Of a DNA stretch of 64,000 bases, positions 21,683 through 37,833 are shown one piece after another (the first letter of the stretch is position 1; every line of letters begins with the position of its first letter). Position numbers and translations under genes: made by a program. The DNA lies in the NCBI GenBank assembly GCA_963805085.1, contig CAWDTA010000002.1, forward strand, positions 224,001 through 288,000. The letters are read 5' to 3'. The stretch is from an uncultured Veillonellaceae bacterium (lineage in GTDB: Bacteria; Bacillota; Negativicutes; JARBTT01). Below the pieces are notes generated by a model. The model saw nothing but the letters and a program-made list of their open reading frames with translations, made no database searches and had not been told where the DNA came from.

Positions 21683-22858
21683 ATGAACTATAATTTTGAT
21701 GAAATTATCGACAGAAGAAATACAAATTCCTTAAAATATGATTTTGCTTTAGAACGTAATAAACCAAGCGATGTACTCCCACTTTGGGTAGCTGACATGG
21801 ATATAAAAACACCACTCGAAGTACGTGAAGCTCTTATAAAATCAGCAGAGCATGGTATCTTTGGTTATTCCGATGTGAAAATCGAATATTTTAACACGCT
21901 AAACAAATGGTTTGAAACCAATTTTGACTGGGAGACTAAACAAGAATGGCTCGTGAAAGCCCCTGGGGTTGTTTTCGCGATTTGTACTGCAATTCGCGCC
22001 TTTACAGAAAAAGGTGATGCTGTACTGATTCAACGCCCTGTATATTATCCATTCTCACTATCAATTAAGGATAATGAACGCAAATTGGTAAACAATCCGC
22101 TTGTGTATAAGGACGGCAAATATGAAATTGACTTTGTTGACTTTGAACAAAAGATTATCGACAATCATGTGAAATTATTTATCCTTTGCAGTCCTCATAA
22201 CCCTGTTGGCAGAGTATGGACGAAAGGAGAATTAACGAAAATCGGCGATATTTGTATCAAACATAACGTACTCGTTGTCGCCGATGAGATTCACGAAGAG
22301 TTTATCTATGAAGGGTTCAAACATCACGTATTTGCGAGTCTAAAACCAGAGTTCAGCGACATTGCGATCACTTGCACCGCGCCAAGTAAAACCTTTAATC
22401 TCGCTGGCTTACAAGTTTCTAATATCTTTATTTCCAATACTGAACTTCGCCGTAAATTCAAAAAGGAAATAATAAAAACTGGTTATTGTGAATTAAACGC
22501 AATGGGACTCGTCGCTTGTCAAACAGCCTATGCCCATGGCCTAGATTGGCTCGATCAATTAAAAGTATATCTTGCCCAAAATCTTGATTTCACTAGAACG
22601 TTCCTCGTCGAAAAAATCCCACAAATAAAACTAGTCGAACCACAAGGTACCTATCTCCTCTGGCTCAATTGCTCAGCTCTCAACTTAGATGATAAAGCTC
22701 TCGAAGACCTCATCGTCAATAAAGCAAAACTTTGGCTCGACGCCGGCACCATGTTCGGCCCTGAGGGCTCAGGCTTCCAACGCATCAATATCACTTGCCC
22801 ACGCGCTACACTAGAAAAAGCGCTGCAACAATTAGAGGCAGCGGTAAAAACGTTGTAA
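21683..22858 (+). CDS. patB: MalY/PatB cystathionine beta-lyase
   Basis: LPLWVADMD, LCSPHNPVGRVW, DEIH, APSKTFNLAGL, GTYLLW. Confidence 0.92.
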   Translation: MNYNFDEIIDRRNTNSLKYDFALERNKPSDVLPLWVADMDIKTPLEVREALIKSAEHGIFGYSDVKIEYFNTLNKWFETNFDWETKQEWLVKAPGVVFAICTAIRAFTEKGDAVLIQRPVYYPFSLSIKDNERKLVNNPLVYKDGKYEIDFVDFEQKIIDNHVKLFILCSPHNPVGRVWTKGELTKIGDICIKHNVLVVADEIHEEFIYEGFKHHVFASLKPEFSDIAITCTAPSKTFNLAGLQVSNIFISNTELRRKFKKEIIKTGYCELNAMGLVACQTAYAHGLDWLDQLKVYLAQNLDFTRTFLVEKIPQIKLVEPQGTYLLWLNCSALNLDDKALEDLIVNKAKLWLDAGTMFGPEGSGFQRINITCPRATLEKALQQLEAAVKTL

Positions 22859-23033
22859 ATTGCAACAAAGATAGAGAATTCAGCAGAATTATGAAGCTAT
22901 TATAGTTATCATTAAAACATAGCATCAATGATTTTATTTACTTTACGAATAAAATCTACTATAATAAACATATACTAAATAAACCAAAAACGCCCTGTGG
23001 AAGCAGGACGTTTCGGTTGAAGATGGTGTGTTG

Positions 23034-23120
23034 TTACCTGCAAAGCGCAATGAGCGTTGTAACCGCTACAATGAACTTAGCAGAAACTATTAGCTTAAAC
23101 GACTTAGTTTCTAGCTGCAT
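23034..23120 (-). CDS. 28-aa hydrophobic peptide, candidate type I toxin
   Basis: GGAGGTGA RBS then MQLETKSFKLIVSAKFIVAVTTLIALCR*; hairpins on both sides; opposing promoter TTTACT-17-TATAAT at 22937-22965. Confidence 0.55.
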   Translation of the reverse strand: MQLETKSFKLIVSAKFIVAVTTLIALCR

Positions 23121-23305
23121 GGTATCACCTCCATATTCAGTTATGAGGACGTAGTTGACGCTACGTCCTTTATTATTATAACTTAATGTGACTAATTTTT
23201 ACAGTTTGAAATAAAACTGTCTTTTCAGTTAATATTTAGATTGCACTAAAAAGAACGAAGCTGAGATTTTGATATTTTAAAGGCACAACTGGCAACTGAC
23301 ACGTA

Positions 23306-23629
23306 TCAGCTGCTAGTTGTGCCTTTTGGGTCGAAATATCTCCGATTGAGCTTTAGAAAATCCATCCGCCTAGGTTTGATTCCCATCTCTAGTAATTCCT
23401 TGTCTAATTTCGCATAGGTAATGTCTCTATACTCTTCGAATGGAATGTCGTCAGCTATTTCAGTCAGAAGACCAAACTGGGAAAGATTATATATCATAAC
23501 TCCCTCTTGTTGCTTAACCATGACATACTTTTTCTTATCAAAATCTGTCATCAATTTAACTGTAAAATCAGCGTTTTCTACTTCCTCAGCCATAATTATG
23601 TCGTCTGTTGTTTTATAGATTCTATACAT
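23306..23629 (-). CDS. Hypothetical protein (107 aa, island-borne)
   Basis: ORF with a GAGG RBS; no recognised motif. Confidence 0.6.
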   Translation of the reverse strand: MYRIYKTTDDIIMAEEVENADFTVKLMTDFDKKKYVMVKQQEGVMIYNLSQFGLLTEIADDIPFEEYRDITYAKLDKELLEMGIKPRRMDFLKLNRRYFDPKGTTSS

Positions 23630-24028
23630 TTACAGAACCTCTATTTCCCCAAAAAACATATCTTGTCCCTTGTAAATAGAATGAACCTCTCCTCTTGGTT
23701 GTGGCGAGGAGGCTTCCTCGCCACATATTGGTGCGATACCTTGCCCACAGTTTTTTACTACCTTGTACTGATACCAATTTTATATCCCCCTTCATCATTC
23801 TGCACGTGGTTTCTTCTATCCGCTGATGCAGATAGAAAAAACCAGCATACAGTTTGTTTCAGGGGAAACCAAAAAAGCACATGCGAGGTTTTATTCAACC
23901 TACACATGCGCTATACTTCATCTTGATTGCATGCAGACGCTAAGCCTCTGCTAAAACTTCAATCGTATTATACCAAGCGAACGGACTATCTCCCTTGTAA
24001 TCAAGGGAAAAGCACGGTATAATAAATT

Positions 24029-24122
24029 GTCGTCGTAGACAGCTAGCTGTTACGTGTAGGTGCTTACCCACCTGCTCGTGCCTCAGAGTGGTGACACACT
24101 CTCAGGACACGGCGACTTTTTT
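24029..24122 (+). ncRNA. Candidate structured small RNA
   Basis: Promoter TTGTAA-17-TATAAT (23995-24023); closing stem GTCGTCGT/ACGGCGAC, three internal hairpins and a U-tract. Confidence 0.55.
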
Positions 24123-24221
24123 AATTTCCACCTATTTTTATTATAATCCATTTGTTGGGGATTGCAAGCAAAAGTAAATCGAAATATGAATTTTTATATA
24201 GAAAAAGCGAGGTCAGTGAGC

Positions 24222-24251
24222 GGGACAAGGGGACAGGTTTTCTGTCCCACT
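24222..24251. repeat. REP site a (abuts the RAYT stop codon)
   Basis: GGGACAAGGGGACAGGTTTTCTGTCCCACT; inverted copy of 25046-25075. Confidence 0.85.
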
Positions 24252-25008
24252 ACAATCTATCAATTACACTTTTAGAAATTCCAGTTATCCTTGCTAATTG
24301 CCTTATCGTAATGCCATTCTTTTCTTTTATCTTTCGGATTACATTATCCCGTTGCTCTTTATTTAATCGTCGCAATTGACTAATCGTTGTTATTCCCATT
24401 TCACTTAAATATTTCATTATTTCTTGATCGGATACAATCACTTTTTCTCTACAATCCAAACACTCATCTGCATTGTTTTCATTTGTATACTCTATAAATA
24501 ATTTTGTCGCCGCTGCTTTGTCACTCGAAAAATTTTCTAACGCAAGCTCTATATCTGTAATGCCTGGTATACCGACATAATTATGATAACTACTCCACAA
24601 ATATTTACCTGCATTTTTTGCAATTCCTGCTTTTACCGGATTCTGATGAATGTATCTCAAAACCATAAGAAAATATGCATCTGTCTCGACAACTTCACTC
24701 TTATATCGTTCTTGAAACAAATGCCCACACCGTTGATATTTTTGATTATACCAATATACATAGCTACTACTAATTCGTTTTATCACTTGGTCTATTGATT
24801 CTTTATTCTCTTTTATCAGCAAATGAATATGGTTATCCATCAAACAGTATCCATATAGCAAATAACCGCTCAACTTCTTATAATATGCAAGCGTTTCTAA
24901 AAATCTTTGTTTGTCTTCTTCATCTTCAAATATATTTTGTTTATTGATTCCCCTACATATCAGATGATAGATTCCTGTTTCACTTTTTAACCGAGCTTTT
25001 CTTGGCAT
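24250..25008 (-). CDS. REP-associated tyrosine transposase (RAYT/TnpA-REP) with C-terminal HTH
   Basis: MPRKAR..GIYHLICRGIN, YCLMDNHIHLL (HUH), GHLFQERYKS, YIHQNPVKAG, YLWSSY; flanked by inverted REPs. Confidence 0.92.
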   Translation of the reverse strand: MPRKARLKSETGIYHLICRGINKQNIFEDEEDKQRFLETLAYYKKLSGYLLYGYCLMDNHIHLLIKENKESIDQVIKRISSSYVYWYNQKYQRCGHLFQERYKSEVVETDAYFLMVLRYIHQNPVKAGIAKNAGKYLWSSYHNYVGIPGITDIELALENFSSDKAAATKLFIEYTNENNADECLDCREKVIVSDQEIMKYLSEMGITTISQLRRLNKEQRDNVIRKIKEKNGITIRQLARITGISKSVIDRL

Positions 25009-25045
25009 AGTATCACCTCAATATTAGTATAACATCTTTTCTATC

Positions 25046-25075
25046 AGTGGGACAGTAAACCTGTCCCCTTGTCCC
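25046..25075. repeat. REP site b (upstream of the RAYT start)
   Basis: AGTGGGACAGTAAACCTGTCCCCTTGTCCC. Confidence 0.85.
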
Positions 25076-25096
25076 TCTAGCATGAAAAAAAGAGCC

Positions 25097-25255
25097 CTAA
25101 GGCTCTCGATTATGATGTTTTCTACGTGTACGAGATTTCTTAATTTCTTGGTATTCCCAAAAAATCTCTAAAGCAATCTTTGCTATTCCTAAGATACTCG
25201 CAACTATAATTAACATTTCTTGAAGTACATCAAAATCTAAGCAACATGTAATCAC
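25097..25255 (-). CDS. Small single-TM peptide with basic tail (type I toxin-like; start uncertain)
   Basis: ...DFDVLQEMLIIVASILGIAKIALEIFWEYQEIKKSRTRRKHHNREP*; the ATG after the GGGGGTGA RBS is out of frame. Confidence 0.4.
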   Translation of the reverse strand: MITCCLDFDVLQEMLIIVASILGIAKIALEIFWEYQEIKKSRTRRKHHNREP

Positions 25256-25476
25256 CCCCTATTAAACATTTCCTTGAGGTGAGAAAAAAGCCACTACAAT
25301 AATGAAATACTTGTCCTATATAGTGTTAACGTTTATAAAGCTCCGTATCCACATTATCCCATAGTTTAAATCTTTTGTAAATACTAAAACAGTTAAAAAT
25401 TTGCAAATAAATATATTTTTTTAAGGAACTGACTGGTATTTAGGCTAGTTAGTTCCTTATATATAATCGATATAAA

Positions 25477-25533
25477 GAACGGGGACAAGGATGTTGCTTT
25501 CAATAAGGAAACATAGTCCCTGTCCCCGCGTTC
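25477..25533. repeat. Degenerate REPIN c
   Basis: GAACGGGGACAAGGATGTTGCTT-tcaat-AAGGAAACATAGTCCCTGTCCCCGCGTTC. Confidence 0.7.
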
Positions 25534-25652
25534 TCTGAATACTGATTCTAGCTGGAGTTTATTTTTATAGAGATAGGAAAGAACTTTATAATCCAAAGAC
25601 AGGTTATACTAAGATTTTGAGCAAAGGATTTTACCACATTTAAAATAATAAG

Positions 25653-25712
25653 GTGTCGAGGGGACGGGGTTGTTGACATAGATGGTTGTCAACAACCCCG
25701 TCCCCTCGACAC
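25653..25712. repeat. REPIN d (perfect 26-bp inverted repeat, 8-bp spacer)
   Basis: GTGTCGAGGGGACGGGGTTGTTGACA-tagatggt-TGTCAACAACCCCGTCCCCTCGACAC. Confidence 0.85.
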
Positions 25713-25841
25713 TCTATGCTGCTCTTTTACATTTTGTAAAAATTTGATTATCTTATCTAATTCCGTAATATCGGATTGAAAAGAAACCTCTTGTAACTCT
25801 ATTAAATTTTCACTGTCTTTTTGATATCCAAATACTTTCAC
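25689..25841 (-). pseudogene. Orphan immunity gene (Imm32-like), truncated by REPIN d
   Basis: GTG start just after the toxin fragment: MKVFGYQKDSENLIELQEVSFQSDITELDKIIKFLQNVKEQH, then reads into the REPIN (RVSRGRGC*); family recognised by eye. Confidence 0.6.
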
Positions 25842-25851
25842 AACTATTCCC

Positions 25852-26064
25852 CTACTTCCCATCTATTTTTTTCAACCATTCTTTTGTATTGTTACTTGGA
25901 TTAGGCGTTCCTTTATGAGCATCATGTATTGTTCCATCATTATTTAAGGATTTTCCGTCTTTAAAATGAACATGTGGTTTTTGTCCTGGAACATGAGGTT
26001 TATCTACTCTATCAACATCTTTTGGTGCCTGTCCTTTTTCAACCTGCTTTTGTAAACTATAAAT
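25852..26064 (-). pseudogene. Orphan polymorphic-toxin C-terminal fragment (no start codon)
   Basis: SLQKQVEKGQAPKDVDRVDKPHVPGQKPHVHFKDGKSLNNDGTIHDAHKGTPNPSNNTKEWLKK; His-rich nuclease-like tip of the kind seen on Rhs/LXG toxins, followed by an immunity-like ORF. Confidence 0.7.
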
Positions 26065-26065
26065 T

Positions 26066-26165
26066 TAGACAAAAGTACGCGTCCCCTTGGCATAGTATCA
26101 CCTCAACGCTAGTATAACACCTTTTTTTCAGTGGGACAGCAAACCTGTCCCCTTGTTCCTCTAGC
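26066..26165 (-). mobile_element. Remnant of a second RAYT 5' end with REP sites e and f
   Basis: 26086-26165 repeats 25001-25081 (REP, promoter, GAGGTGA RBS, ATG CCA AG) but is joined straight to a REP variant (GGGGACGCGTACTTTTGTCTA). Confidence 0.8.
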
Positions 26166-26321
26166 TGTTAATCGCTAGAGAGAAACCGAAACGAAGTGAA
26201 GGTTTCAAAGAGAATACTTGTTGGCGGTTAAATAATTATTATTTTGTGCGTTAATAAATGATTTATTTTATTTTTACACTTTGTTATTAAAATACTATAT
26301 GATGTGGGGTTTGTACAACTA

Positions 26322-26892
26322 TTAATATATAAATATTACAAAGTCGTGAGAGTGTAACATAATTTTGGTGATTTGTTTAAAAATATTTTTAAATTGCGTT
26401 TTTAGCGGTTGGTGATAAAACTACTATGAAGTATTGATTTGTATGGTTTGAATGAATTTGAGTGCGTAAATAATAATTATTTTATGGTGGTATATATTTT
26501 AGGGTATTTTGCTGTAAAGAGTGCATTTGCTCTGTTTATTAAAAAAGTATATATATTGTGCGGTTGGTGCATCTATATATAAATATTTTTCCATTTTTTA
26601 AATTTAATATATAAATATTACAAAGTCGTGAAAGTGTAACATGATTTTGGTGATTTTTTTAAATATTTTTAGTTTGGTGGTTTTGTGTGCTTTGTATGTT
26701 AAAAAATAATTATATAGGTGAAATGGGGGTAAATCTGTATTGATTTTGCTATAGATATTGAACAATTTAGCGGTTGGTACGTTATTACTTTTAAAATACA
26801 TATATATTGAGTGTCTTGTATTACTATAAATATATATTTTTCCTTTTTTAATTTTAATATATAAATATTACAAAATCGTCAAAGTGTAACAT
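26322..26892. repeat. Three spaced direct repeats of a 39-bp core
   Basis: TTAATATATAAATATTACAAA(G/A)TCGT(G/C)A(G/A)AGTGTAACAT at 26322, 26604 and 26854. Confidence 0.85.
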
Positions 26893-27347
26893 CAAATTGG
26901 CAACATTTTTAAAAATATTTTTACCCTTGACCAGTAGAATAAATACTATAGGATACCGTGACACGTGACAATGGTTTGTCACTAGTATAATTATTTTAAA
27001 TTAAAATGGTATATCGTAGTCAAATTTTTGACTAGTTCATTATCAATATCTAATATTCAGGTGGACTCATAGTAAAAACATATATTCATCAGATTTATTT
27101 TGGAACACCTATTAATAGTATCTTATATCAATGGTTCATGAAAAATCATCTGTTTTAACGTGGTGACTCTGATTATAAAATGTTGTTTAATTTGATTATT
27201 ATTTAAGGACTTAAATTGATTTAAACCTTGATTTTACTGGTTTAATGATATTTTACATAAAAGAACCTCTACGACGAAAACACCGTTTTCGTCATCACCG
27301 ACAGGTGATATATTAGAATTATTTTTATTAAAAAGGAGGTTTTATTT

Positions 27348-27515
27348 ATGTATGATACTGTGAGAAAATGTCCTAATTGTGGTAGTGATGCACCTTGTAT
27401 GGGTTCTTTGATGAAATGCAAAGAATGTGGTGGTACTTATTGTTCTAATTGTTCTGGTAATGGCTATGGGGGTAGTTGTCCGTTTTGTGGAGGTAATGAA
27501 TCGAAGTCTTTTTAA
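27348..27515 (+). CDS. 55-aa Cys-rich double zinc-ribbon microprotein
   Basis: AAGGAGG RBS; MYDTVRKCPNCGSDAPCMGSLMKCKECGGTYCSNCSGNGYGGSCPFCGGNESKSF*, four CxxC. Confidence 0.8.
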   Translation: MYDTVRKCPNCGSDAPCMGSLMKCKECGGTYCSNCSGNGYGGSCPFCGGNESKSF

Positions 27516-27661
27516 TTTCAAGGTTACTCAGTTTTTCTAGATTAATTGAAACGGCATTGTTAATAGGAATTTATTACCTATTAATTAGGTGTCACTAGAG
27601 AGCACCTGAGAATTAAAATGGTCAGTGGATTTTTTACGTCCACTGACCTTGTTTGCATTAA

Positions 27662-28012
27662 CTAAAAATCAAACTTTAGATTTCCCTTTTCCCATTCCGA
27701 AAGTGTCATCTTTGCATTAAACGCAGTAAGCCCTCTGGTACCACTCAGCTCTAACAAAACTTCCTTAGATCGGTCTGGTTGAATCGGGACTAAGCTAATT
27801 GCAGTTTCCAACCTAACAAATCTATTTTGGTGTTCCAAAAATGGAAGCAATTTTTCTAACCCATATTCGAAATTTGATTTTAATTCTTTTCGTATTTTTT
27901 GAATAACCCTTTGCTGCTTATTATACGTCTTGGAATCTCCCCTCTCTTGTGCATCCTCCCCCTTTATACAAGCTTCTATGTATTCATCTATAATCTTCCC
28001 TAAAGGCCTCAT
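27662..28012 (-). CDS. cdiI: Cognate immunity protein (DUF2019-like)
   Basis: Small ORF directly after the toxin stop with a GAGGAGG RBS; GDSKTYNK...LLPFLEH...VRL...AKMTLSEWEKGNL. Confidence 0.75.
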   Translation of the reverse strand: MRPLGKIIDEYIEACIKGEDAQERGDSKTYNKQQRVIQKIRKELKSNFEYGLEKLLPFLEHQNRFVRLETAISLVPIQPDRSKEVLLELSGTRGLTAFNAKMTLSEWEKGNLKFDF

Positions 28013-28024
28013 ACACAACCTCCT

Positions 28025-31000
28025 CTATTCAAACGGTGTAAATATCCATTTTCCAACCGAATCTCGCACAACTGTACCATAATCTTTCAATGAATTCATT
28101 CCAAATTCAAATTGCTCCTCAAAGCTTTTTGTTGCTAACCAGTCTCTTACTGTTAAACCACCTGCCCAGTATGGTTTTGATGAATACAAACCACTAATGG
28201 CACTATGAACACTATCCTTACCAGATTGCAGCGCAATTATATTTTCTACATTATTTACATCTTCTACTGCAAATCCTGCTCTACTCGCATTCAGTTGTGC
28301 TTGTTCAACTATGTGATGCCATTGATTTCCTACCCCAGGCGATCCAAGATAAGCCTTTAGTTCTTTGAACGTCTTGAAACCAATGCCAACTCCACCAACA
28401 GAGCCTGTTACCCCATCCAGAGAATCTTTAAACTCTTGTTTCTGTCGTTCAACTTCATCTGCTAATTCATGAGCATTACTCGGATCGTCTGGATCAATTC
28501 CATTCCATCTTAAACTGATTTTCGCAAAATCTAAAGTTGAACCATTCTCTGATTGTACACGCCAACTTCTGTATGGGTGGTTCTCCAAATCTTCTTTATT
28601 AATAATGGATTTTCCATTTACAATAATCTGACTTTCAGTATCGTCATAAACAGCGACATTTACACCATAAATTTCTTTCCATTTGAAATAAATGTGTCCT
28701 CCATCAGCTCCTACAATATATTCGTAACCCATTTGGTTACCATCAGTGTCATAGCTTCCATCATCTACCCAGAAAACAGTTCCCGGTTCTATACCATCTG
28801 GCAAATAGTATTCTTTTCCGTCACTACCTACTTTATAGTATCCTCTTCCCTCTCCGTTTTCGTCACCACTTGAGTAGATTATTGAGCCTTCTGTAGTTGG
28901 TCGATGAGCATAATCATTATATAATGTCCCAGTGTATGCCGTTGAACCACCTACTTGACCATTTCCTCCAACTAATTTAGACGCGGTTGCTCCTACTATG
29001 GAACTTGCAATTAAACGTAGATTTGGGTCTTTTATTTTAGCTAATTCTTTCTGTAGAGCTTGCGTTACTCCTGCTCCTACTGCACCTGAAGTAAATCCAT
29101 TTCCTCCAAGTTCAGACATTATTCCGCCTACTACAGTATGTAAGAGAATTTTATATTCTCCGCCTTCTGCCCACTTAGCCTTTTCTTCCTTAGTAGTAGC
29201 TTTTTCCCACTGTTTTTCTGCTAAGTCGCCCACTGCTTTATAAGCTTCTTGCCCAAATAAATTAGCTAATTCTTGTTTTTCTTTAACAGTTTCTTTATCA
29301 AAGATTTTTCCTAATGCATTTAAAGCATTTTCTGTATCCCGATTAAGTTGACTTAAATCTTGTTTAGGATTACTTCTTACTTCTATAGTTCCATTCGAAA
29401 TTGCAGATTTTGTTGTACTATTAGCATCACCAGATACTGGCATAGTTGCATTTCGTGTAACAGGAAGTTTCGAGCCAGCTTGCGTAGAATAGCCCGTACT
29501 ACTTGCGCTATATTTCGCTCTGTTTTCCATATTGGAGAAAGTCAGCGTATCCGTGCTGATCTTATTCTTATCTGGCGTAGCATCGCTCGAAATGACCGCA
29601 CCTTTTAGATCGGTATTTTTGCCTACATTGATATCAAATCCGTCCTTACCTGCAAAGATACCTGCTTGATCTGTTACACTGGCATACGTAGAATCGGTTT
29701 CTCCTTTACTAGAAGAGCCAGTTACGTTTGTAGTCGTCGTGGTTTTATTGATCGGCCCCTGCTGACCAGGTTCTAGAGGTTTTCCTCCTACTTTCTCAGT
29801 ACTAAATCCAAATCCTGTACTTTTGTTATTCGCTGTGTAATTATCTGTGTCCTGCTTACTCTCTATGTTTAGGTCACCTTTGATATCAGCTACTACTTTA
29901 TCTCCTTTTACCTGAGAGCCATCAATGTTAGTGTCTTTACCCGAATTCATTGTTAAGGTACCACTCGCATCAATTACGCTTTCTGTATTTGTGGTAATAT
30001 CTCCATTTTCATTGCCCTTATCGGAGTTGAAGTTGCCAAAATAACTAACACCTTTATCTGCAAGTCCAAGTGAACCTCCTACTGACCAAGACGAGGAGCT
30101 CGTATGACTCGTCGTCTGCTGTTTGTTTTCTGCCGCTTCAATATTGAGATCTTTTTTCGCATCTAGGGTGATATCTACCGCATCAATTTTTGTTCCTTTC
30201 AGGTTCAAGTCGCCGTCAGTGGCTTTAATTTTTACATTGCCACCTGCACTAATGTCAGAGGTATTGACAGTCTCTACATGCTCAGTCTGTTCAGATGATA
30301 TTTTCGTGCTGCCGATGCTGACGCTAACAGCAACGCCTGAGTTCAAGTTTCCCTTGGCATCTTTGATTTTTTCAATATCTTTATAAGCTTGATATTCGTG
30401 AAGCGTTTTAAGCCGTTCGTCTTTTACTTCACCTGCACGATCAATATTGTTTAAGGCGCTCTTTCCAGTATCGACAACACCGCCACCTAAGGATACGCTA
30501 AGTCCTGTTTGTTTGAATTCGTATTTGGTCTGACTATCAACCGTATTGATCGTGTTATCAATGGTAACGTCTTTACCTTTAATGTTTAAATCTTCACCAG
30601 TAACAAATGCCGTACCCGCACTATTTGCCTTATTACCAGCAGTGACAGTTACATTTCCATCAATCGAACCAACCGTACTGCCAACTTGATCTAATGTTTT
30701 TTCATCGGTTGTTGTTTTCGTACTTTGCGTTCCTATGGTAAAGCCTAGCCCGCCACCGCTGAAAAGACCAGATTTTCTGGTATAGGAATAGTGATCATCA
30801 TTTCCTGTTTCTTTGGCGCTGGTAATGTTGACATCATTGGCAGCGCTAAGTGTTACATCCTTTGTTCCAACAACATTACTGCCTTTTACTGTCAAGTCTT
30901 TACCAGAGGAGACAGCTACCTCATCGCCAGAGATAGTGCTGCCTTTCACCTCGTTAATCAACGAATGATCCATTGTATCAGTAGTCTTACTAGAAAAAGC

Positions 31001-34000
31001 TCCCTTATGTTTGGTATGCGTCTGTACTAGGGATTCATGTTTTTCTGTGACTTCTTGTATCGTAAGATCTTTCTCTGCTGTAATGGTTACCTTACTCTTA
31101 TCACTTTCGATGGTACTGCCTGCAATGGTAATATTCCCGCGATTTTCAGCATCAGGTATCGTAGTTCCATCGGGAAGTTTCGATGTAGTTTCTATTTTAA
31201 CTGCTCCGCCACCTTGGAGCGTACTGCCGATAACAGTCTCATCATCCGTTCTGGTTCTCTTCCAACCATGGCGAATTCCAACTTTTTCATCGTGAATTGC
31301 TTCGTCTTTTACCGCGGAAATATTGATATTGCCACCAGCCAGCACTGTGAGATCCTTAGTTGCTGTGATTTGTGCGCCTTGTAAATTTGTATCTTTACCA
31401 GAGGTAATACTTACATTGTTACCTCCATGAATACCGCTAACTACATTGCTTACGTTATCGTCTAGGTAGGATGATTTCTCAAATGAAATGCGTTCTTGTT
31501 CTTTTACACTATCAGATGTAAAGTTGCCGCCTGCAGTGATCGTAACATCTTTTCCCGCAGTGATCTGCGCGCCAGTGTTAGAAATATCGTTTCCTGCTTT
31601 GATAGTCAGATTCTCTCTTGCATTGATACTAGCAATATTACCAGCAGTTGTTTCTGTCATAAATGGCAAGGTTCTAGTAGAGGAGATGGTTTCGTTTTTA
31701 ATATCTCCGTCTGCTATTAGCTGAGTCTGGTCACTATTGATAGAACCACCAATATTAAGGATATTTTTATCCGCAGTTAGCTGTGTGCTCTTGCCGCCAT
31801 CAATGTTGCCGCCATAGTTAGCGATATTTACGGCTTGTATATTTACACTTTCAGTAGCTTTAATCGCACCACCATTCTTGACATCGCCACTGGCAGTAAT
31901 CTGTACATTGTCTGCCGCAATCACTGCACCATTGGCCTTAAGTTCAACATTTTTTGAAGGAGCGAGATACACTTGAGGCACGAGTACTTTCTGTCCATCT
32001 ACTTCTTTTTCTACGAGCCACACGATATCCGAGGTCAACTGCGCCATCTGTTCGGCGGTCAACGCCACGCCAACCTGTAGATTAAATTCTTTTGCATAAG
32101 TTGCGCCATTCGTTAATAGCGCTTTATATTGTTCTTCGGCAGATGAATAACCACTTAAGGTATACCTGCCAGTAAGTTCTGTTACTTGTTCGCGCACCAA
32201 CTTTTGTTCATAAAAACCGTCACCTAGACGTTTTGTTGTCTTATCTGGATCAATATTCAATTTTTGCAGCATATAATCGCTGGAAATAAAATTTTCATAG
32301 CTAGTGAACCGCGAGTCGGTTTCCACCAAACAATGCGCACTTGGTTCTGTATTGATTTTAAACATCGCATTCGATGGAAGGGTAATTTGAGTAGCAACCG
32401 TCTGTTTAGCCGAAGTGGTATTCGTATCCTTAGCTACTGGCAACAAGGTCTGGGTATTTTCAAGGGGAACACTGCTGTTAATTGTCGGGGTATTTACTGG
32501 AGAAGTAGTTACATTGTGAATCGTTGTTCCTTGAATGCTAACTGCTTGACCGCCACCTAAGATAGCTGTTGAACCTGGGAGCTGTTCATATGTGGTATCA
32601 TCATAGCGCTTATCTATATAAGTCCACATACCGTCACCTTCCCTATTGACGGCTTCTGCAAAATGCCGCGTAGTAACGCGATCATATCCTGTTGCAATGT
32701 TGTTGACTATCCCTACTGCACTTAGAGTGCCACCAGCTAAAATCGAGCTATTATCATTGATAACATTATCAGTTTTGAATTTTATATTATTGACGGAAAT
32801 AATTTTTCCTTCTGGTGAGTCCTTGATAATTTTTGTTTCTGTTACTGTTTGCCCTAAGAGATATGTTGCATGCTCCACACTCTTTGACACACTTCTATCA
32901 TCGTTAACCTCAACTTCAATATACTCAGTCCATTCTGATCCTGGTATTATATACGTTTTAGGCCAACCCCAGAATTTATCCTTATCACCTACGCTGATAT
33001 ACGTCTCATTCGACACAACTTGCTGTCCCGTCACAAATTCTCGTTTCTTATTCGTCAACGTATTTGCACTGATATTGATATCTTTCTCTGCCTCTATTGT
33101 CGCTGATTGATTCAGTACCGTATTCGTTTTATCTATATATTCGCCATTGCTATCCTTTTTTGAACTGCCAGCAATATTTATATTGCCACTGCTATAAAAC
33201 GAAGCACCGTCTTTATTTTCCAGCGATGTCTTGGCATAAATATCTGCTTCTTTTGTTGTCGCAATGACTGCTTTATCACCGTTATTCTGCACCGTATCTG
33301 CTGTCACGGTCAATGTATCACCAAAGACTGCACCGGTATTGGTGATATTTTTTCCAGATAGATTAACATCACTGCTCTGCACAGTGCCACTATTCGTCAC
33401 ATCACCAGCAACACTAATATTTAATTTCGTTCCACCTTTAAGTGTTGCACCAGCGCCATTATTAACATTAGCTGCCGAAACAGTAAGATTGCGCACAGCG
33501 GACATACTACCATCGTTATGAAGATTCGCTACATTAAAATTCAGATCTCTGTTCGCCGTAATACTGGTTCCAGCTCCATAGGTAAAGTCGCCATTCAGGT
33601 TGAAGTTGATATCCTGTCCAGAGGAGATAGCACCTGCACCAAATAGAGTATTACTTGTTAAATTAATATCGCGATTCGCCATCAAATTGCCGCCAGCAAT
33701 ATTAAACGAAGCTGCATTTACTAAGAGATTTTCTCCTGCGCTCATGCTACCCTGCGAAGTTGTTATCATAGAGGTTGCTGCTGTTTTTCCGATATTAACA
33801 TCCTGTTCAGCCGTAATCTTACCATTGGTATTATCTAGGCTATCTGAAATATTTGCATTGATATCTTTTTTCGCAAGTACCTTGCCTGTGTTATTCACGA
33901 GCGAAGATGCTGTCAAGTTCACATCGCCATTGCCGCCGATCGTCCCCGCGGTATTATCCATGGTTTGCAACGCATTCATAACCAAGCCACTATTGTCTAG

Positions 34001-35881
34001 ATTGGTCATGCTACCATTTTGGTTAGCAATGTTCTGCGCAGTAACGGTAAGGTTTTTACCTGCTTGCACTACGCCTTGCTGATTGCTCAAATTGTTTTGT
34101 GCATTAATTTTAAGATTGCCGCCAGCAGCCATCGTTCCTTGGTCATTGACTACGCTTGCACTGTTACTATTCATATCCTGTTGAGCAATCATAGTTCCGC
34201 TTGTATTATTTATATCCGCAGCGGTGATGTCCAATTGCCCATTCGTCGTCACTTTACCGCTATTGTTCGTCATCCCGTTCGTAGTGTTTATGGTGAGTTT
34301 TCCACTACCAGCGTGAAGGATTTGCCCTTGTGTATTGTCTATAGAATCAGCCTTCATGGTTACGGATGATCCATTGGTTGTAACTATACCACCAGTATTA
34401 TCTATACTATTCGCAGCCGTCAAAGTAGCTTCACCTGTACCGGACTGTTGCATACTTCCGCCACGGTTACTAATGTTTTGTGCCGTAATGGTAACTGCAT
34501 TTGCCGTAATTTGCCCAGCAGTACCATTTGTATTTTTGTCATTTTTTATAGTTTGGGCAGCCTTTATCGACAGCGCCCCATCGTTTTGCAAAGTAGCTCC
34601 AGTATTGTTAATATCGCCTGCAGTTGCAGTGAGATTGACATTCCCGTCAGCCGTGGTCTTGGCTCCTGACAGGTCAATTGCTGTGCCTTGCACGGACAGA
34701 TTGCCTCCTGCAATATTATTGCCATTCAGCGTAGCAGTTTCTGCTGTGAGGATGGAAAGATTTCCAGTTTCTTTTAGTGTATTATCACTGCTAATTCCAG
34801 CACCGAGATTTCCTGTAGAAAGTAGCGATTTGGCTACGATTACATTGTTGCCCCCAGAGATAACACTCCCCGTATTATTGATTTGCCCTTGGCCGTTTAA
34901 ATTGATATTCTTCTCAGCGCTGACCGTTCCACTCAGATCCATATCATTTTGTGCAGCTAAGTTGATATCTTCTTTGGCAACGGTATTGCCTGTGAGCTTT
35001 ATTTTTCCGGCAGAACTGATTTCTATATTGTTTTGCGCGGAAAGGTCTCCCCCCAGATTTACACCTACACCGGCATCGGTCCCGATTAACTTGATTTTAT
35101 TGGCATACATACCGCCTAGTGCGCCTACATCAACAGCGACTAGCTCTTGCGGCTGATCAGTTGCTATTTTTTGTGTAGCTAAGGTGTTATGGTCAATTGT
35201 ATTGCTACCTGCGATTACATTGAGATTTTTTGCCCAAATACCTGCATTGACTTCAATTGCTTTACTTAACAGGTCTACTTGATCGGTTTGTCTGGCATCT
35301 AAACCAGCTCCTTGAATCTGTATTTGACCCCTATTTACGTTGAAGGCTTCTAAGCTGCCATCACCGCCAAAGATAGGTTTTCCAGTTGTAAGGATTGCTC
35401 GATTTGCATTGATAAAGCCAAAACCGTCTCCATAAATACCATTGGGGTTGGCGATGATGATTTCGGCATTGCTTCCTGCAACTTCACTGTATCCTTTTAA
35501 ATAGCTGGGATTGGTACTGGTTACTTCATTTAAGATAATCCTAGCCGTTCCGTTTGCTAAGTTTGGGTTTCCTAGGATATAGCCAGCTAGCTGGGTTTTA
35601 CTTATGCCTTGGGAATTGTTAAAAATAAGGCCGATTTTATCGACATTGAATTGTTGATAGTAGTTGTGAGATACCCCTGCGTTAGAGGGCTTAGCAATAT
35701 CTACAATTGGTACACCATTTTGAGCAGTTTGCACTGTCGGCTGATTTTTGCTGGCATTTTTATCGATGATTACTTCCGCTGATACCAGTATTGGCTGCAA
35801 TGTAAAAGTGATTGCTGTGAGTAGGGCAATCACTTTTTTTCTAAAGATTTTCGCTTTATTCTTCGTCATTTGCATTATCAT
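28025..35881 (-). CDS. cdiA: Filamentous haemagglutinin-like TpsA exoprotein with C-terminal nuclease toxin
   Basis: Signal peptide, TPS domain (NPNL, ILNEV, ANPNGI), FHA repeats, LGDGFYEQKLV/SDIVWLV region, TLYN pre-toxin motif, C-terminal WHHIVEQ..N..H HNH-like domain. Confidence 0.92.
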   Translation of the reverse strand: MIMQMTKNKAKIFRKKVIALLTAITFTLQPILVSAEVIIDKNASKNQPTVQTAQNGVPIVDIAKPSNAGVSHNYYQQFNVDKIGLIFNNSQGISKTQLAGYILGNPNLANGTARIILNEVTSTNPSYLKGYSEVAGSNAEIIIANPNGIYGDGFGFINANRAILTTGKPIFGGDGSLEAFNVNRGQIQIQGAGLDARQTDQVDLLSKAIEVNAGIWAKNLNVIAGSNTIDHNTLATQKIATDQPQELVAVDVGALGGMYANKIKLIGTDAGVGVNLGGDLSAQNNIEISSAGKIKLTGNTVAKEDINLAAQNDMDLSGTVSAEKNINLNGQGQINNTGSVISGGNNVIVAKSLLSTGNLGAGISSDNTLKETGNLSILTAETATLNGNNIAGGNLSVQGTAIDLSGAKTTADGNVNLTATAGDINNTGATLQNDGALSIKAAQTIKNDKNTNGTAGQITANAVTITAQNISNRGGSMQQSGTGEATLTAANSIDNTGGIVTTNGSSVTMKADSIDNTQGQILHAGSGKLTINTTNGMTNNSGKVTTNGQLDITAADINNTSGTMIAQQDMNSNSASVVNDQGTMAAGGNLKINAQNNLSNQQGVVQAGKNLTVTAQNIANQNGSMTNLDNSGLVMNALQTMDNTAGTIGGNGDVNLTASSLVNNTGKVLAKKDINANISDSLDNTNGKITAEQDVNIGKTAATSMITTSQGSMSAGENLLVNAASFNIAGGNLMANRDINLTSNTLFGAGAISSGQDINFNLNGDFTYGAGTSITANRDLNFNVANLHNDGSMSAVRNLTVSAANVNNGAGATLKGGTKLNISVAGDVTNSGTVQSSDVNLSGKNITNTGAVFGDTLTVTADTVQNNGDKAVIATTKEADIYAKTSLENKDGASFYSSGNINIAGSSKKDSNGEYIDKTNTVLNQSATIEAEKDINISANTLTNKKREFVTGQQVVSNETYISVGDKDKFWGWPKTYIIPGSEWTEYIEVEVNDDRSVSKSVEHATYLLGQTVTETKIIKDSPEGKIISVNNIKFKTDNVINDNSSILAGGTLSAVGIVNNIATGYDRVTTRHFAEAVNREGDGMWTYIDKRYDDTTYEQLPGSTAILGGGQAVSIQGTTIHNVTTSPVNTPTINSSVPLENTQTLLPVAKDTNTTSAKQTVATQITLPSNAMFKINTEPSAHCLVETDSRFTSYENFISSDYMLQKLNIDPDKTTKRLGDGFYEQKLVREQVTELTGRYTLSGYSSAEEQYKALLTNGATYAKEFNLQVGVALTAEQMAQLTSDIVWLVEKEVDGQKVLVPQVYLAPSKNVELKANGAVIAADNVQITASGDVKNGGAIKATESVNIQAVNIANYGGNIDGGKSTQLTADKNILNIGGSINSDQTQLIADGDIKNETISSTRTLPFMTETTAGNIASINARENLTIKAGNDISNTGAQITAGKDVTITAGGNFTSDSVKEQERISFEKSSYLDDNVSNVVSGIHGGNNVSITSGKDTNLQGAQITATKDLTVLAGGNINISAVKDEAIHDEKVGIRHGWKRTRTDDETVIGSTLQGGGAVKIETTSKLPDGTTIPDAENRGNITIAGSTIESDKSKVTITAEKDLTIQEVTEKHESLVQTHTKHKGAFSSKTTDTMDHSLINEVKGSTISGDEVAVSSGKDLTVKGSNVVGTKDVTLSAANDVNITSAKETGNDDHYSYTRKSGLFSGGGLGFTIGTQSTKTTTDEKTLDQVGSTVGSIDGNVTVTAGNKANSAGTAFVTGEDLNIKGKDVTIDNTINTVDSQTKYEFKQTGLSVSLGGGVVDTGKSALNNIDRAGEVKDERLKTLHEYQAYKDIEKIKDAKGNLNSGVAVSVSIGSTKISSEQTEHVETVNTSDISAGGNVKIKATDGDLNLKGTKIDAVDITLDAKKDLNIEAAENKQQTTSHTSSSSWSVGGSLGLADKGVSYFGNFNSDKGNENGDITTNTESVIDASGTLTMNSGKDTNIDGSQVKGDKVVADIKGDLNIESKQDTDNYTANNKSTGFGFSTEKVGGKPLEPGQQGPINKTTTTTNVTGSSSKGETDSTYASVTDQAGIFAGKDGFDINVGKNTDLKGAVISSDATPDKNKISTDTLTFSNMENRAKYSASSTGYSTQAGSKLPVTRNATMPVSGDANSTTKSAISNGTIEVRSNPKQDLSQLNRDTENALNALGKIFDKETVKEKQELANLFGQEAYKAVGDLAEKQWEKATTKEEKAKWAEGGEYKILLHTVVGGIMSELGGNGFTSGAVGAGVTQALQKELAKIKDPNLRLIASSIVGATASKLVGGNGQVGGSTAYTGTLYNDYAHRPTTEGSIIYSSGDENGEGRGYYKVGSDGKEYYLPDGIEPGTVFWVDDGSYDTDGNQMGYEYIVGADGGHIYFKWKEIYGVNVAVYDDTESQIIVNGKSIINKEDLENHPYRSWRVQSENGSTLDFAKISLRWNGIDPDDPSNAHELADEVERQKQEFKDSLDGVTGSVGGVGIGFKTFKELKAYLGSPGVGNQWHHIVEQAQLNASRAGFAVEDVNNVENIIALQSGKDSVHSAISGLYSSKPYWAGGLTVRDWLATKSFEEQFEFGMNSLKDYGTVVRDSVGKWIFTPFE

Positions 35882-37639: not shown

Positions 37640-37833
37640 AGCGACTCCATTCATTCTAACTTATTTATTTTCATAATCCTTTACAATAAATGCAAAACTT
37701 TACTTAATTGACACAGTTCTAAACTATTTTCCATTTTCCTGCTATTATTAAACTGTTTTACAAAATTAGCACTTTAGTCCCATTGATTGTATTTGTAAAA
37801 AAAACTGACATCGTATCAAAACGATGCCAGTTT

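Follow-up and report, generated by a model that had tools for sequence, protein, structure and literature searches.

The window, by which we mean the whole 64,000-nucleotide stretch of DNA analyzed here, belongs to a genome assembly of five contigs (4.21 Mb, 83% complete, 6% contamination). Pfam matches identify a cdiBAI locus on its minus strand, comprising cdiB (35921-37654; ShlB/FhaC with POTRA domains), cdiA (28025-35881; 2618 aa with a TPS domain, Fil_haemagg-type haemagglutinin repeats and a weak AHH-like tip) and cdiI (27662-28018; DUF2019), which ends at 27662. The orphan toxin/immunity pair described below is co-oriented with this locus, as the first-pass annotation had stated. A repeat at 27110-27662 abuts the cdiI stop and contains, on the plus strand, a gene for a 55-aa Zn-ribbon protein with four CxxC motifs (27348-27515). 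Between this gene and a RAYT remnant lies an AT-rich stretch with three direct repeats of ~250-280 bp (26200-26955); a collinear homologue of this stretch, again between a RAYT gene and a Zn-ribbon gene, was found in genome G016. A tRNA search across the window found none, so the region has no tRNA-linked island edge.

Beyond the remnant, ORF translation and profile searches revealed an intact minus-strand gene (24250-25008) for a RAYT-type Y1 (HUH) transposase of 252 aa with a C-terminal helix-turn-helix, here called RAYT1. The protein matches PF01797 (Y1_Tnp, E 2.3e-16), with weak Pfam HTH matches over residues 215-252, and contains HIH (within DNHIHLL) and RYIHQNP, which we take to be the catalytic motifs of the Y1/HUH fold. 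Its top NCBIfam match is the REP-associated tyrosine transposase NF047646, at 73.5 bits and thus below the equivalog cut-off of 80. RAYT1 had no match to the IS200 model NF033573 at E ≤ 0.01, and a second transposase, RAYT2, scores just 27.6 bits against the NCBIfam IS200 model. The gene is enclosed by inverted REP ends: the left one (24219-24251), which contains a GGGACAG/CTGTCCC hairpin with GGGACAAG ahead of it, pairs with the right one (25046-25078). The claim of an intact RAYT within an inverted REP pair therefore holds, with arms of 33 nt at 94% complementarity instead of the 30 bp first noted. A multi-copy alignment sets the limits of the unit at 24222-25079, and inverted REP ends also surround the RAYT homologues of L002, G018 and G006.

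Five full RAYT1 copies at 95-100% nucleotide identity are present in the source genome, together with partial copies and about 20 RAYT1-type cognate hairpins. Two of the five full copies lie inside CDI arrays; most copies are outside toxin loci. G004, a genome from a different family, contains two RAYT1 copies at 88-89% identity and five MITE-like internal-deletion derivatives of ~250 bp. The RAYT1 unit behaves as an ordinary, multi-copy, IS-like mobile element. RAYT/REP(IN) systems are reportedly the subject of earlier work by Nunvar in 2010 (PMC2817692). According to Bertels 2017 (PMC5581495), RAYTs are typically single-copy and accompanied by abundant cognate REPs, in keeping with domesticated behavior, and the Group 1 RAYTs are the most IS-like of the true RAYTs. 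By this comparison RAYT1 appears to resemble Group 1. It shares with the RAYT/REP(IN) systems described there a Y1/HUH transposase between inverted REP hairpins and dispersed solo and doublet REPs, and it differs from them in having five full copies, only about 20 hairpins instead of hundreds, MITE-like derivatives and 89%-identical copies in another family, with several RAYT/REP families sharing one genome. Its near-identical copies with defined ends, Y1 transposase, replication-tied orientation and short non-autonomous derivatives are IS200/IS605-like, as is the result that none of the RAYT copy flanks listed showed a target duplication. The long inverted terminal repeats, the C-terminal helix-turn-helix and the unmatched IS200 model, in contrast, set RAYT1 apart from IS200/IS605.

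The region around RAYT1 is crowded with REP-type hairpins. Between 24200 and 26200, GGGGAC/GTCCCC occurs eight times against 0.23 expected (35-fold, Poisson p 1.5e-10), compared with two occurrences across the remaining 62 kb of the window, and the GGGGAC...GTCCCC hairpins at 25481-25527 and 25660-25705 are two of just eight in the 4.21-Mb assembly. REP c (25471-25530) is an imperfect hairpin of this kind with copies on contig C2 at 1455689 and 639576; a similar unit adjoins another RAYT paralogue at C2:708869. REPIN d (25648-25717) consists of 31-nt arms (25648-25678 and 25687-25717) around an 8-nt loop, has copies in other genomes, and resembles a REP flanking the RAYT paralogue at C2:1595096. 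A composite remnant of ~107 nt on the minus strand (26059-26165) joins the REP variant e (AAGGGGACGCGTAC...) to the start of another RAYT1 copy, of which the right inverted end, the 5' leader and the first codons are preserved. Its RAYT1-derived part is 90% identical to 25001-25081, the composite recurs at C2:551084-551175 (97.8%) with another flank, and REP e types are also found in arrays of G004 and G018. Altogether, at least four sequence types can be distinguished among these REP units, and their relationships point to different RAYT paralogues. Of the variants listed initially, the hairpins at 25477 and 25653 were recovered; those at 26066 and 26130 proved to be one composite and not two REPs, and the supposed degenerate REP at 26958, which lacks GGGGAC and yielded no further copy, is not supported. 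Rfam returned only sub-threshold microRNA-like matches on the hairpins, and none on 22800-24300.

The DNA between the REPs had been described as unrelated gene pieces, which applies to the toxin and immunity pieces and to a 243-bp repeat on the minus strand (25080-25322); the other inter-REP stretches gave no matches. The repeat carries a 52-aa hydrophobic ORF (25097-25255) belonging to no Pfam family, and has a second copy at C2:1478631-1478872 (94.7% nucleotide identity, 92% between the ORF products).

The toxin piece is a start-less minus-strand frame of 70 aa (25852-26064), of which ~65 aa form a CdiA-CT/Rhs-CT domain according to homologue searches. At E ≤ 0.001 the search gave 580 homologues, matched in almost every case at their extreme C-terminus, including Rhs proteins (RHS repeats in six of the nine long matches scanned) and a Pelosinus MAG CdiA in which the same tip is fused to the full-length protein. 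Its position at the very end of varied delivery proteins, with a small conserved immunity gene behind it, identifies the piece as a polymorphic-toxin tip, as first proposed, and its homology border at 26059 places its beginning at REP e. Pelosinus and Sporomusa hold the closest relatives of the pair. Compared with the Pelosinus CdiA, homology does not begin before the ~65-aa tip, in agreement with the first-pass view that the orphan has no cdiA pre-toxin homology; as read from translations, the pre-toxin motif appears to be (K)YND and not VENN. Relative to three of three homologues, the tip has a 1-nt gap in an A-run that puts its last ~10 codons out of frame. Pfam, NCBIfam and PDB profile searches gave no name for the toxin family. 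Foldseek with a predicted model of the tip (pLDDT 77.7) returned nothing at E ≤ 0.001, and ESM Atlas placed it among unnamed clusters, with just one PT-HINT cluster as a structural neighbor.

The immunity piece (25716-25841, minus strand, GTG start) corresponds to residues 1-42 of a 79-aa protein in homologue alignments and is 95% identical to its Pelosinus MAG homologue over these 42 aa. Ten full-length homologues that we examined measure 76-82 aa, and in the relatives' loci the immunity homologue begins about 30 nt past the toxin match. The C-terminal 37 aa (residues 43-79) are encoded neither within 24000-27000 nor on any of the five contigs of the assembly. Nucleotide homology to three relatives spans 26059 to 25714/25716 and therefore ends at both element borders, with each end of the pair within about 2 nt of a REP-type element and the outer edge of REPIN d coinciding with the point at which the immunity gene stops. 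The cut at REPIN d and the coincidence of breakpoints with REP borders, both put forward from the initial inspection, are borne out. A plain insertion of REPIN d into the immunity gene was ruled out because the downstream half is missing both locally and assembly-wide. Judging from its start-less frame, the 1-nt frameshift and the loss of half of the immunity gene, the pair is dead.

Our best reading is that the stretch is what remains, in a diderm Firmicute, of the tail of a contact-dependent inhibition (CDI) locus undergoing decay. We assign a probability of roughly 0.6 to an orphan module that decays in place, with REP/RAYT insertions and deletions bounded by REPs doing the pruning. The ancestral order would have been cdiB-cdiA-cdiI, the small Zn-ribbon gene on the opposite strand and a RAYT-type element, with an orphan cdiA-CT/cdiI module also present downstream. 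Several coexisting RAYT/REP families, as Y1/HUH elements using a single-stranded DNA route and their own hairpin ends, may have inserted into the non-essential DNA there. Inter-REP DNA would then have been lost, either because RAYTs cut and resealed the DNA at REP hairpins or because REP copies recombined with one another. The residue would be the start-less, frameshifted catalytic tip of the toxin and 42 of the 79 immunity codons, each bounded by an element border. The analysis demonstrates what the parts are, that the RAYT unit is multi-copy and mobile, where exactly the breakpoints lie and that the missing halves are absent. Neither a deletion intermediate nor a REP-free allele was seen, and both the REP-mediated nature of the deletions and the order of events are inferred. 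Sporomusa malonica carries the same toxin/immunity pair as an orphan immediately behind cdiA/cdiI, which fits decay in place. Against this reading, the locus is more ordered than random decay would predict, as both borders fall at REP elements and four REP types occur within 2 kb. Also to be weighed against it are the L002 and G004 loci described below, the larger though not significantly larger number of RAYT than of IS256 copies near cdiA, and the incompleteness and contamination of the assembly. A pruning role of REP/RAYT fits because the cognate pair is trimmed at REP-type borders amid crowded REP variants. Of the RAYT/REP mechanism first envisaged, it is this pruning that is retained; integron-like capture and shuffling of cassettes are not, given the dead fragments and the IS256 control described below. 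The array is thus best read not as a gene-capture device, but as a sink for mobile DNA, with the mobile DNA pruning orphan cassettes.

To place the locus in a wider context, 121 genomes of the class were surveyed, with proximity defined as a RAYT or IS256 gene within 10 kb of a cdiA 3' end. RAYT genes were proximal in 10 of 26 genomes having both, compared with 5 of 18 for the IS256 control (Fisher p 0.53), which is biased upward because it was chosen from a CDI array; counted as copies, the values were 17/88 and 5/44 (p 0.32). The control IS family thus lies near cdiA about as often as RAYTs do, and CDI tails are accordingly most simply understood as mobile-DNA sinks. Other CDI arrays of the source genome hold IS256-, IS110- and IS1182-type elements, and according to a review (PMC9086364), transposable elements and orphan modules are frequent complications of cdi loci. 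On a 79-row tree, the label of CDI-linked RAYTs required 14 changes (at least 11 forced; shuffled mean 16.5, with 27 of 500 shuffles as low), and these genes therefore arrived many times. A co-inherited cdi-RAYT gene pair was rejected, as the CDI-linked RAYTs are scattered over the tree instead of grouping in one clade. Every proximal RAYT gene points in the same direction as its neighboring cdiA. We rejected this as evidence of coupling, because replication-strand bias accounts for it: the GC skew of contig C2 switches near 0.81 Mb, and 15 of 16 RAYT-like genes on this contig are oriented accordingly, as are the cdiA genes.

It seems unlikely that RAYT/REP families act as specialized colonizers and organizers of CDI orphan arrays in diderm Firmicutes, with REPs and REPINs marking cassette boundaries, as in the G004 array described below, and RAYTs deleting, and occasionally transposing, the cassettes by cutting and joining single strands at the hairpins. 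If true, this would constitute an HUH-enzyme analogue of cassette turnover, and the window would display the final state reached by the pruning.

Rather improbable, too, is an integron-like system in which RAYTs nick and rejoin REP hairpins and thereby actively capture, move and delete toxin/immunity cassettes downstream of CDI loci. Such a system would account for breakpoints at REP borders and for RAYT genes ≤3 kb downstream of three of the four CDI loci in the source genome, as well as for the proximity to cdiA in 10 of 26 genomes. In an Anaerosolibacter MAG (L002), which belongs to another class, a RAYT1 homologue (62% aa identity) with the same inverted ends comes after the same toxin/immunity pair, and solo REP-like motifs lie on either side of this region. 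The resemblance to integron arrays, with short imperfect palindromes between small promoter-less gene units pointing in one direction, is clearest in G004. There, in addition to the five RAYT1-derived MITEs, each of six orphan toxin frames has one of a set of near-identical 85-nt REPIN doublets exactly at its 5' end, where the doublet supplies an in-frame GTG start, and at least one inter-REP unit is a recognized toxin/immunity pair (Endonuclea_NS_2 and YezG-like). However, six of the eight full copies of this REPIN are in one array, for which local spread or gene conversion fits too, and none of the cassettes was observed at a second REP site. The cassette in the window is non-functional, and a Y1 transposase lies near this toxin domain in only 2 of the 49 loci that contain it. 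The similar enrichment of IS256, the scattered tree label and the replication-based orientation argue against the model as well. Unlike integrons, the array shows REP units of several unrelated types and largely broken cassettes, and its enzyme is of the HUH type and not a tyrosine recombinase: no IntI-type or other integrase, attI-like attachment site or Pc-like cassette promoter was seen, and among the frames scanned at 24000-28100 no recombinase family was found, the Y1 transposase being the sole enzyme.

We further consider it doubtful that the block 3' of cdiI (Zn-ribbon gene, REPs and RAYT) provides portable homology, forming together with conserved cdiA sequence the two arms of an exchange in which a RecA-dependent double crossover would swap cdiA-CT/cdiI among strains and species, with RAYT catalysis unneeded. 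All six copies of the Zn-ribbon module in the source genome lie beside CDI modules, where they abut cdiI stops or precede orphan cdiA fragments, and the module retains 76-84% nucleotide identity in other families. A compact order of cdiA-CT, cdiI, Zn-ribbon gene and RAYT recurs in G080 and G016, and the source genome has it at another locus as well; this recurrence also supports the ancestral order proposed above. Conservation of the Zn-ribbon module needs no recombination role, however, because the ORF is under purifying selection (32 of 39 differences synonymous). In addition, the orphan in the window has neither arm, and no recombinant pairs were demonstrated.

Least probable is coincidence, in which unrelated deletions truncated the orphan earlier and REPs landed on the scars later, or the junctions arose by chance: extragenic DNA is where REP-type elements accumulate, and the junction of RAYT and REP e shares a mere 4-nt CAAG microhomology that would fit illegitimate recombination, but two independent breakpoints each lie within ~2 nt of an element end, one of these ends has an identical terminus at a second genomic site, and the local REP density is far above expectation (p 1.5e-10).

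Gain, displacement and loss of orphan toxin/immunity modules are mainly ascribed to homologous recombination at the pre-toxin motif. The pair described here is like the orphan cdiA-CT/cdiI modules of Poole et al. 2011 (PMC3150448) and PMC9086364 in that it is start-less, sits downstream of cdiBAI in the same orientation, and has its cognate immunity gene next to it. Unlike those classical modules, it has no pre-toxin start or motif and no intact immunity gene, being reduced to the catalytic tip plus one half of that gene, and its borders are REP elements instead of cdiA homology. The limited library searched contained no literature linking RAYT/REP with cdiA, polymorphic toxins or orphan immunity.

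At this locus, orphan-module loss has taken another route, one bounded by elements, and its relatives indicate that Y1/RAYT elements of many lineages settle repeatedly just downstream of cdiI. A horizontally moving, multi-copy RAYT unit with MITE-like derivatives bears on the question of whether RAYTs have been domesticated or remain selfish. If RAYTs cut and rejoin at the borders described here, this would assign a concrete genomic effect to the enigmatic RAYT/REP systems, and the locus would offer a tractable test bed, in which defined REP variants lie beside scorable toxin/immunity genes.

The window is part of a 2.1-Mb contig in a 4.21-Mb assembly (37% G+C), rated as 83% complete with 6% contamination. 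On the minus strand, cdiB (35921-37654; ShlB and POTRA domains) is followed by cdiA (28025-35881), encoding 2618 amino acids with a TPS domain, haemagglutinin repeats and a weak AHH-like tip, and by cdiI (27662-28018; DUF2019). A repeat adjoining the cdiI stop (27110-27662) holds a plus-strand gene for a 55-aa zinc-ribbon protein with four CxxC motifs (27348-27515). Beyond an AT-rich stretch with three direct repeats of ~250-280 bp (26200-26955) lie a 107-nt composite element (26059-26165), a toxin tip (26064-25852, minus strand) and an immunity gene fragment (25841-25716, minus strand). The array continues with two GGGGAC-type hairpin elements, REPIN d (25717-25648) and REP c (25530-25471), a 243-bp repeat (25322-25080), the unit of the Y1 transposase RAYT1 (25079-24222) and a ~920-bp non-coding repeat (24216-23293), and is bordered on its far side by housekeeping genes for an aminotransferase, a Cys/Met PLP enzyme and an Rrf2 regulator. 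At the boundary between conserved CdiA and variable tip, a (K/L)YND motif is found in the window's cdiA (near 28900) and in loci L001, L052 and L062; these diderm Firmicutes CdiA variants (GTLYNDY, GMKYNDQ, GTKYNDL and GVKYNDY) stand in place of the VENN of enterobacterial CdiA.

The first-pass annotation had taken the two short frames downstream of the CDI locus for an orphan toxin C-terminus and its immunity gene, and homologues bear this out. A search of 1.84 billion representative proteins with the 70-aa toxin frame gave 580 matches at E ≤ 0.001; among the best 150, nearly all placed the domain at the extreme C-terminus irrespective of protein length, and six of the nine long matches scanned carried RHS repeats. 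A CdiA homologue of the window's protein in a Pelosinus MAG has this domain as its tip, and Sporomusa malonica carries it as an orphan immediately downstream of cdiA and cdiI. The conserved domain spans ~65 aa with near-invariant H31, V32, H33, D36, N41, G44 and H47; comparison with Pfam, NCBIfam, PDB sequences and folds returned no match. In the relatives' loci, immunity homologues begin ~30 nt past the toxin and, in the ten full-length examples examined, measure 76-82 aa. The window retains residues 1-42, and the remainder is missing from 24000-27000 and from the entire assembly. Compared with all three closest homologues, the toxin frame is also 1 nt short in an A-run, ~30 nt ahead of their stop.

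RAYT1 was confirmed as intact, with a complete ORF of 252 aa matching PF01797 (E 2.3e-16). Its top NCBIfam match is the model for REP-associated tyrosine transposases (73.5 bits against a cut-off of 80), the IS200 NCBIfam model did not match, and its C-terminus gave weak helix-turn-helix matches. The predicted inverted REP pair around it corresponds to 33-nt inverted repeats at both ends that are 94% complementary. GGGGAC or its complement occurs eight times in 24200-26200, where its 481 occurrences genome-wide would predict 0.23 (p 1.5e-10), and twice elsewhere in the window. REP c and REPIN d are two of only eight GGGGAC...GTCCCC hairpins in the entire assembly. The sequence features are real and non-random. 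Some details had to be revised: the supposedly separate REPs at 26066 ('REP e') and 26130 belong to one composite piece, and a 'degenerate' REP at 26958 found no support.

The first part of the composite element consists of the right inverted end, leader and first codons of a second RAYT copy (90-91% identity with 25001-25081), which after ATGCCAAG is fused to a different REP variant (AAGGGGACGCGTAC...). An identical fusion (97.8%) with the same outer terminus and another flank is present at 551084-551175 of contig C2 of this genome. At the junction, only CAAG is common to 'ATGCCAAG' and the REP foot 'GACAAGG', which would fit microhomology-mediated joining as well as an aberrant reaction of RAYT at the foot of the hairpin. 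Nucleotide homology with the relatives' loci (88-90%) extends from 26059 to 25714/25716, and the borders of the toxin/immunity remnant are therefore the outer terminus of the composite element and the outer arm of REPIN d. The claim that the breakpoints coincide with REP elements holds accordingly.

The RAYT1 unit (24222-25079) is a mobile element. Five full copies including that of the window (95-100% identity) are present in the genome, together with truncated and internally deleted ones, and G004, a genome from another family of the class, holds two copies at 88-89% as well as five ~250-bp derivatives in which the left 200 bp are joined to the right 59 bp. The genome also encodes about a dozen more distant RAYT paralogues (30-49% aa identity); REP c and REPIN d resemble REPs beside those at C2:708869 and C2:1595096, and the REP e type is present in orphan arrays of G004 and a further genome, G018. 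Most RAYTs are described as single-copy and REP-rich, whereas RAYT1 is multi-copy with ~20 hairpins of its type genome-wide. Y1 elements use single-stranded DNA, so that an orientation tied to replication is expected, as established for IS200/IS605. By reported traits rather than by sequence, the closest likeness to the behaviour of RAYT1 is found in the Group 1 RAYTs of Bertels et al., for which duplicates, low counts of 16-mers and an occurrence in Clostridia are described (PMC5581495).

RAYT1-type hairpins are interrupted at the same loop point (GGGGACAGGTT|GAAAYCACTGAAAAAGT) at C2:551175, 552841, 1396805 and 1519219; at the first site, ~60 nt after the interrupting sequence comes a gene for a 525-aa DDE transposase (DUF772, DDE_Tnp_1_6), and this may be an insertion sequence targeting REP hairpins. 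The ~920-bp repeat (23293-24216) has 13 near-full-length copies in the genome (79-93% identity), a better conserved 3' half and variability without codon periodicity (0.090/0.093/0.085). RAYT1 copies adjoin it three times, in the window, at C2:554300/554318 and at C2:801351/801352, an Rfam search of it gave nothing, and it may represent a non-autonomous element or a large non-coding RNA. The 243-bp repeat contains a 52-aa hydrophobic/basic ORF (25097-25255, minus strand) followed by a terminator-like hairpin; a second copy of the ORF (92% aa identity; C2:1478697-1478852) adjoins a fragment of the ~920-bp repeat.

The compact arrangement of cdiA-CT, cdiI, an opposite-strand zinc-ribbon gene and RAYT recurs in the sampled genomes G080 and G016 and at a second locus of this genome (C2:1940-1952 kb), which makes the truncated RAYT copy at 26093-26165 the probable original neighbour of the window's cdi genes. 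In G016, AT-rich repeats likewise lie between the RAYT and zinc-ribbon genes. The window's AT-rich stretch 26305-26920, upstream of the zinc-ribbon gene, contains a ~84-nt core three times, spaced 282 and 250 bp; it is unique in its genome and has a collinear homologue (67-86%) at the equivalent place in G016. All six genomic copies of the zinc-ribbon gene lie beside CDI modules or the paralogue RAYT2, and their 39 nucleotide differences comprise 32 synonymous ones, with 35 at codon position 3. The protein, which belongs to no Pfam or NCBIfam family, has homologues in G016 (85-89% aa identity) and partial ones in G006 and G080, and its gene seems to be a conserved companion of these CDI loci.

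Active RAYT-driven turnover of toxin/immunity cassettes, the integron-like mechanism originally proposed, appears unlikely. An orphan array in G004 (L062; contig C7, 845-864 kb) comprises about ten toxin/immunity units, one of which could be identified as Endonuclea_NS_2 paired with a YezG-like immunity protein, and another starts just ahead of the YND pre-toxin motif. Six near-identical 85-nt REPIN doublets, similar to the REP beside RAYT2 of the window's genome, sit precisely at the 5' ends of orphan frames and are joined to differing points of cdiA or toxin sequence; three of them provide a GTG start in frame ('MTKKERPL...'). G004 has eight full copies of the doublet, six of them within this array. 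These doublets are the strongest case for REP units as cassette boundaries, and local spread into neutral DNA also fits them. Also located in this array (G004:C7:845001-864000) are the five RAYT1 deletion derivatives, remnants of RAYT2 and fragments of integrase/excisionase type. An Anaerosolibacter MAG carries the window's toxin tip and a full immunity gene, flanked on both sides by REP-like AAGGGGAC motifs, ahead of a RAYT1 homologue (62% aa identity) with the same type of inverted ends. Across the 49 loci carrying the toxin domain, a Y1 transposase was found in the fetched flanks of only two, of which this locus is one. In the window's genome, three of the four CDI loci have RAYT-type genes no more than 3 kb downstream, and on contig C3 a RAYT1 end again cuts short an orphan cdiA fragment. 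The same arrays also hold IS256-, IS110- and IS1182-type elements, and other RAYT1 copies adjoin PixA-type genes and unknown ORFs.

In a class-wide census of 121 sampled genomes, RAYT-like genes were present in 43 and the conserved cdiA 3' region in 40. Excluding the window's genome, 10 of the 26 genomes holding both had a RAYT gene on the contig of a cdiA match and no more than 10 kb from it (17 of 88 copies). The corresponding numbers for an IS256-like control, itself chosen from a CDI array, were 5 of 18 genomes and 5 of 44 copies (Fisher p 0.53 and 0.32, respectively); fragmented assemblies conceal some links. Both rates are far above our rough estimate of 1-3% for random placement. All proximal RAYT genes shared the orientation of the cdiA match, and almost all lay downstream of it. 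On contig C2, 15 of 16 RAYT-like genes, and the cdiA genes likewise, follow the leading strand on either side of the cumulative GC-skew minimum near 0.81 Mb, so that their co-orientation reflects replication.

A maximum-likelihood tree was calculated from 79 RAYT proteins: 60 full-length, stop-free rows of the 122 census rows outside the window's genome, nine from that genome, nine from earlier loci and the Anaerosolibacter homologue. Partial matches, including three of 167 aa beside cdiA in G018, were left out. The 18 CDI- or toxin-linked rows are spread over many subfamilies, and the label requires 14 changes, of which supported branches force at least 11; shuffled labels gave a mean of 16.5, with 27 of 500 shuffles as low as 14. 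RAYT elements thus came to CDI loci many times and are no accessory gene inherited along with them.

A two-step history is the simplest. REP-type elements would first have inserted into an orphan pair, resembling that of S. malonica, which sat downstream of the CDI locus, and the DNA between these elements would subsequently have been lost. Of the capture, shuffling or pruning of cassettes by RAYT/REP activity that had been suggested, pruning, the weakest form, is supported and anything beyond it is not. We favor, with a probability of roughly 0.6, the reading that the locus is an orphan CDI module decaying under IS-like RAYT/REP colonisation, in a region that attracts several kinds of mobile DNA.
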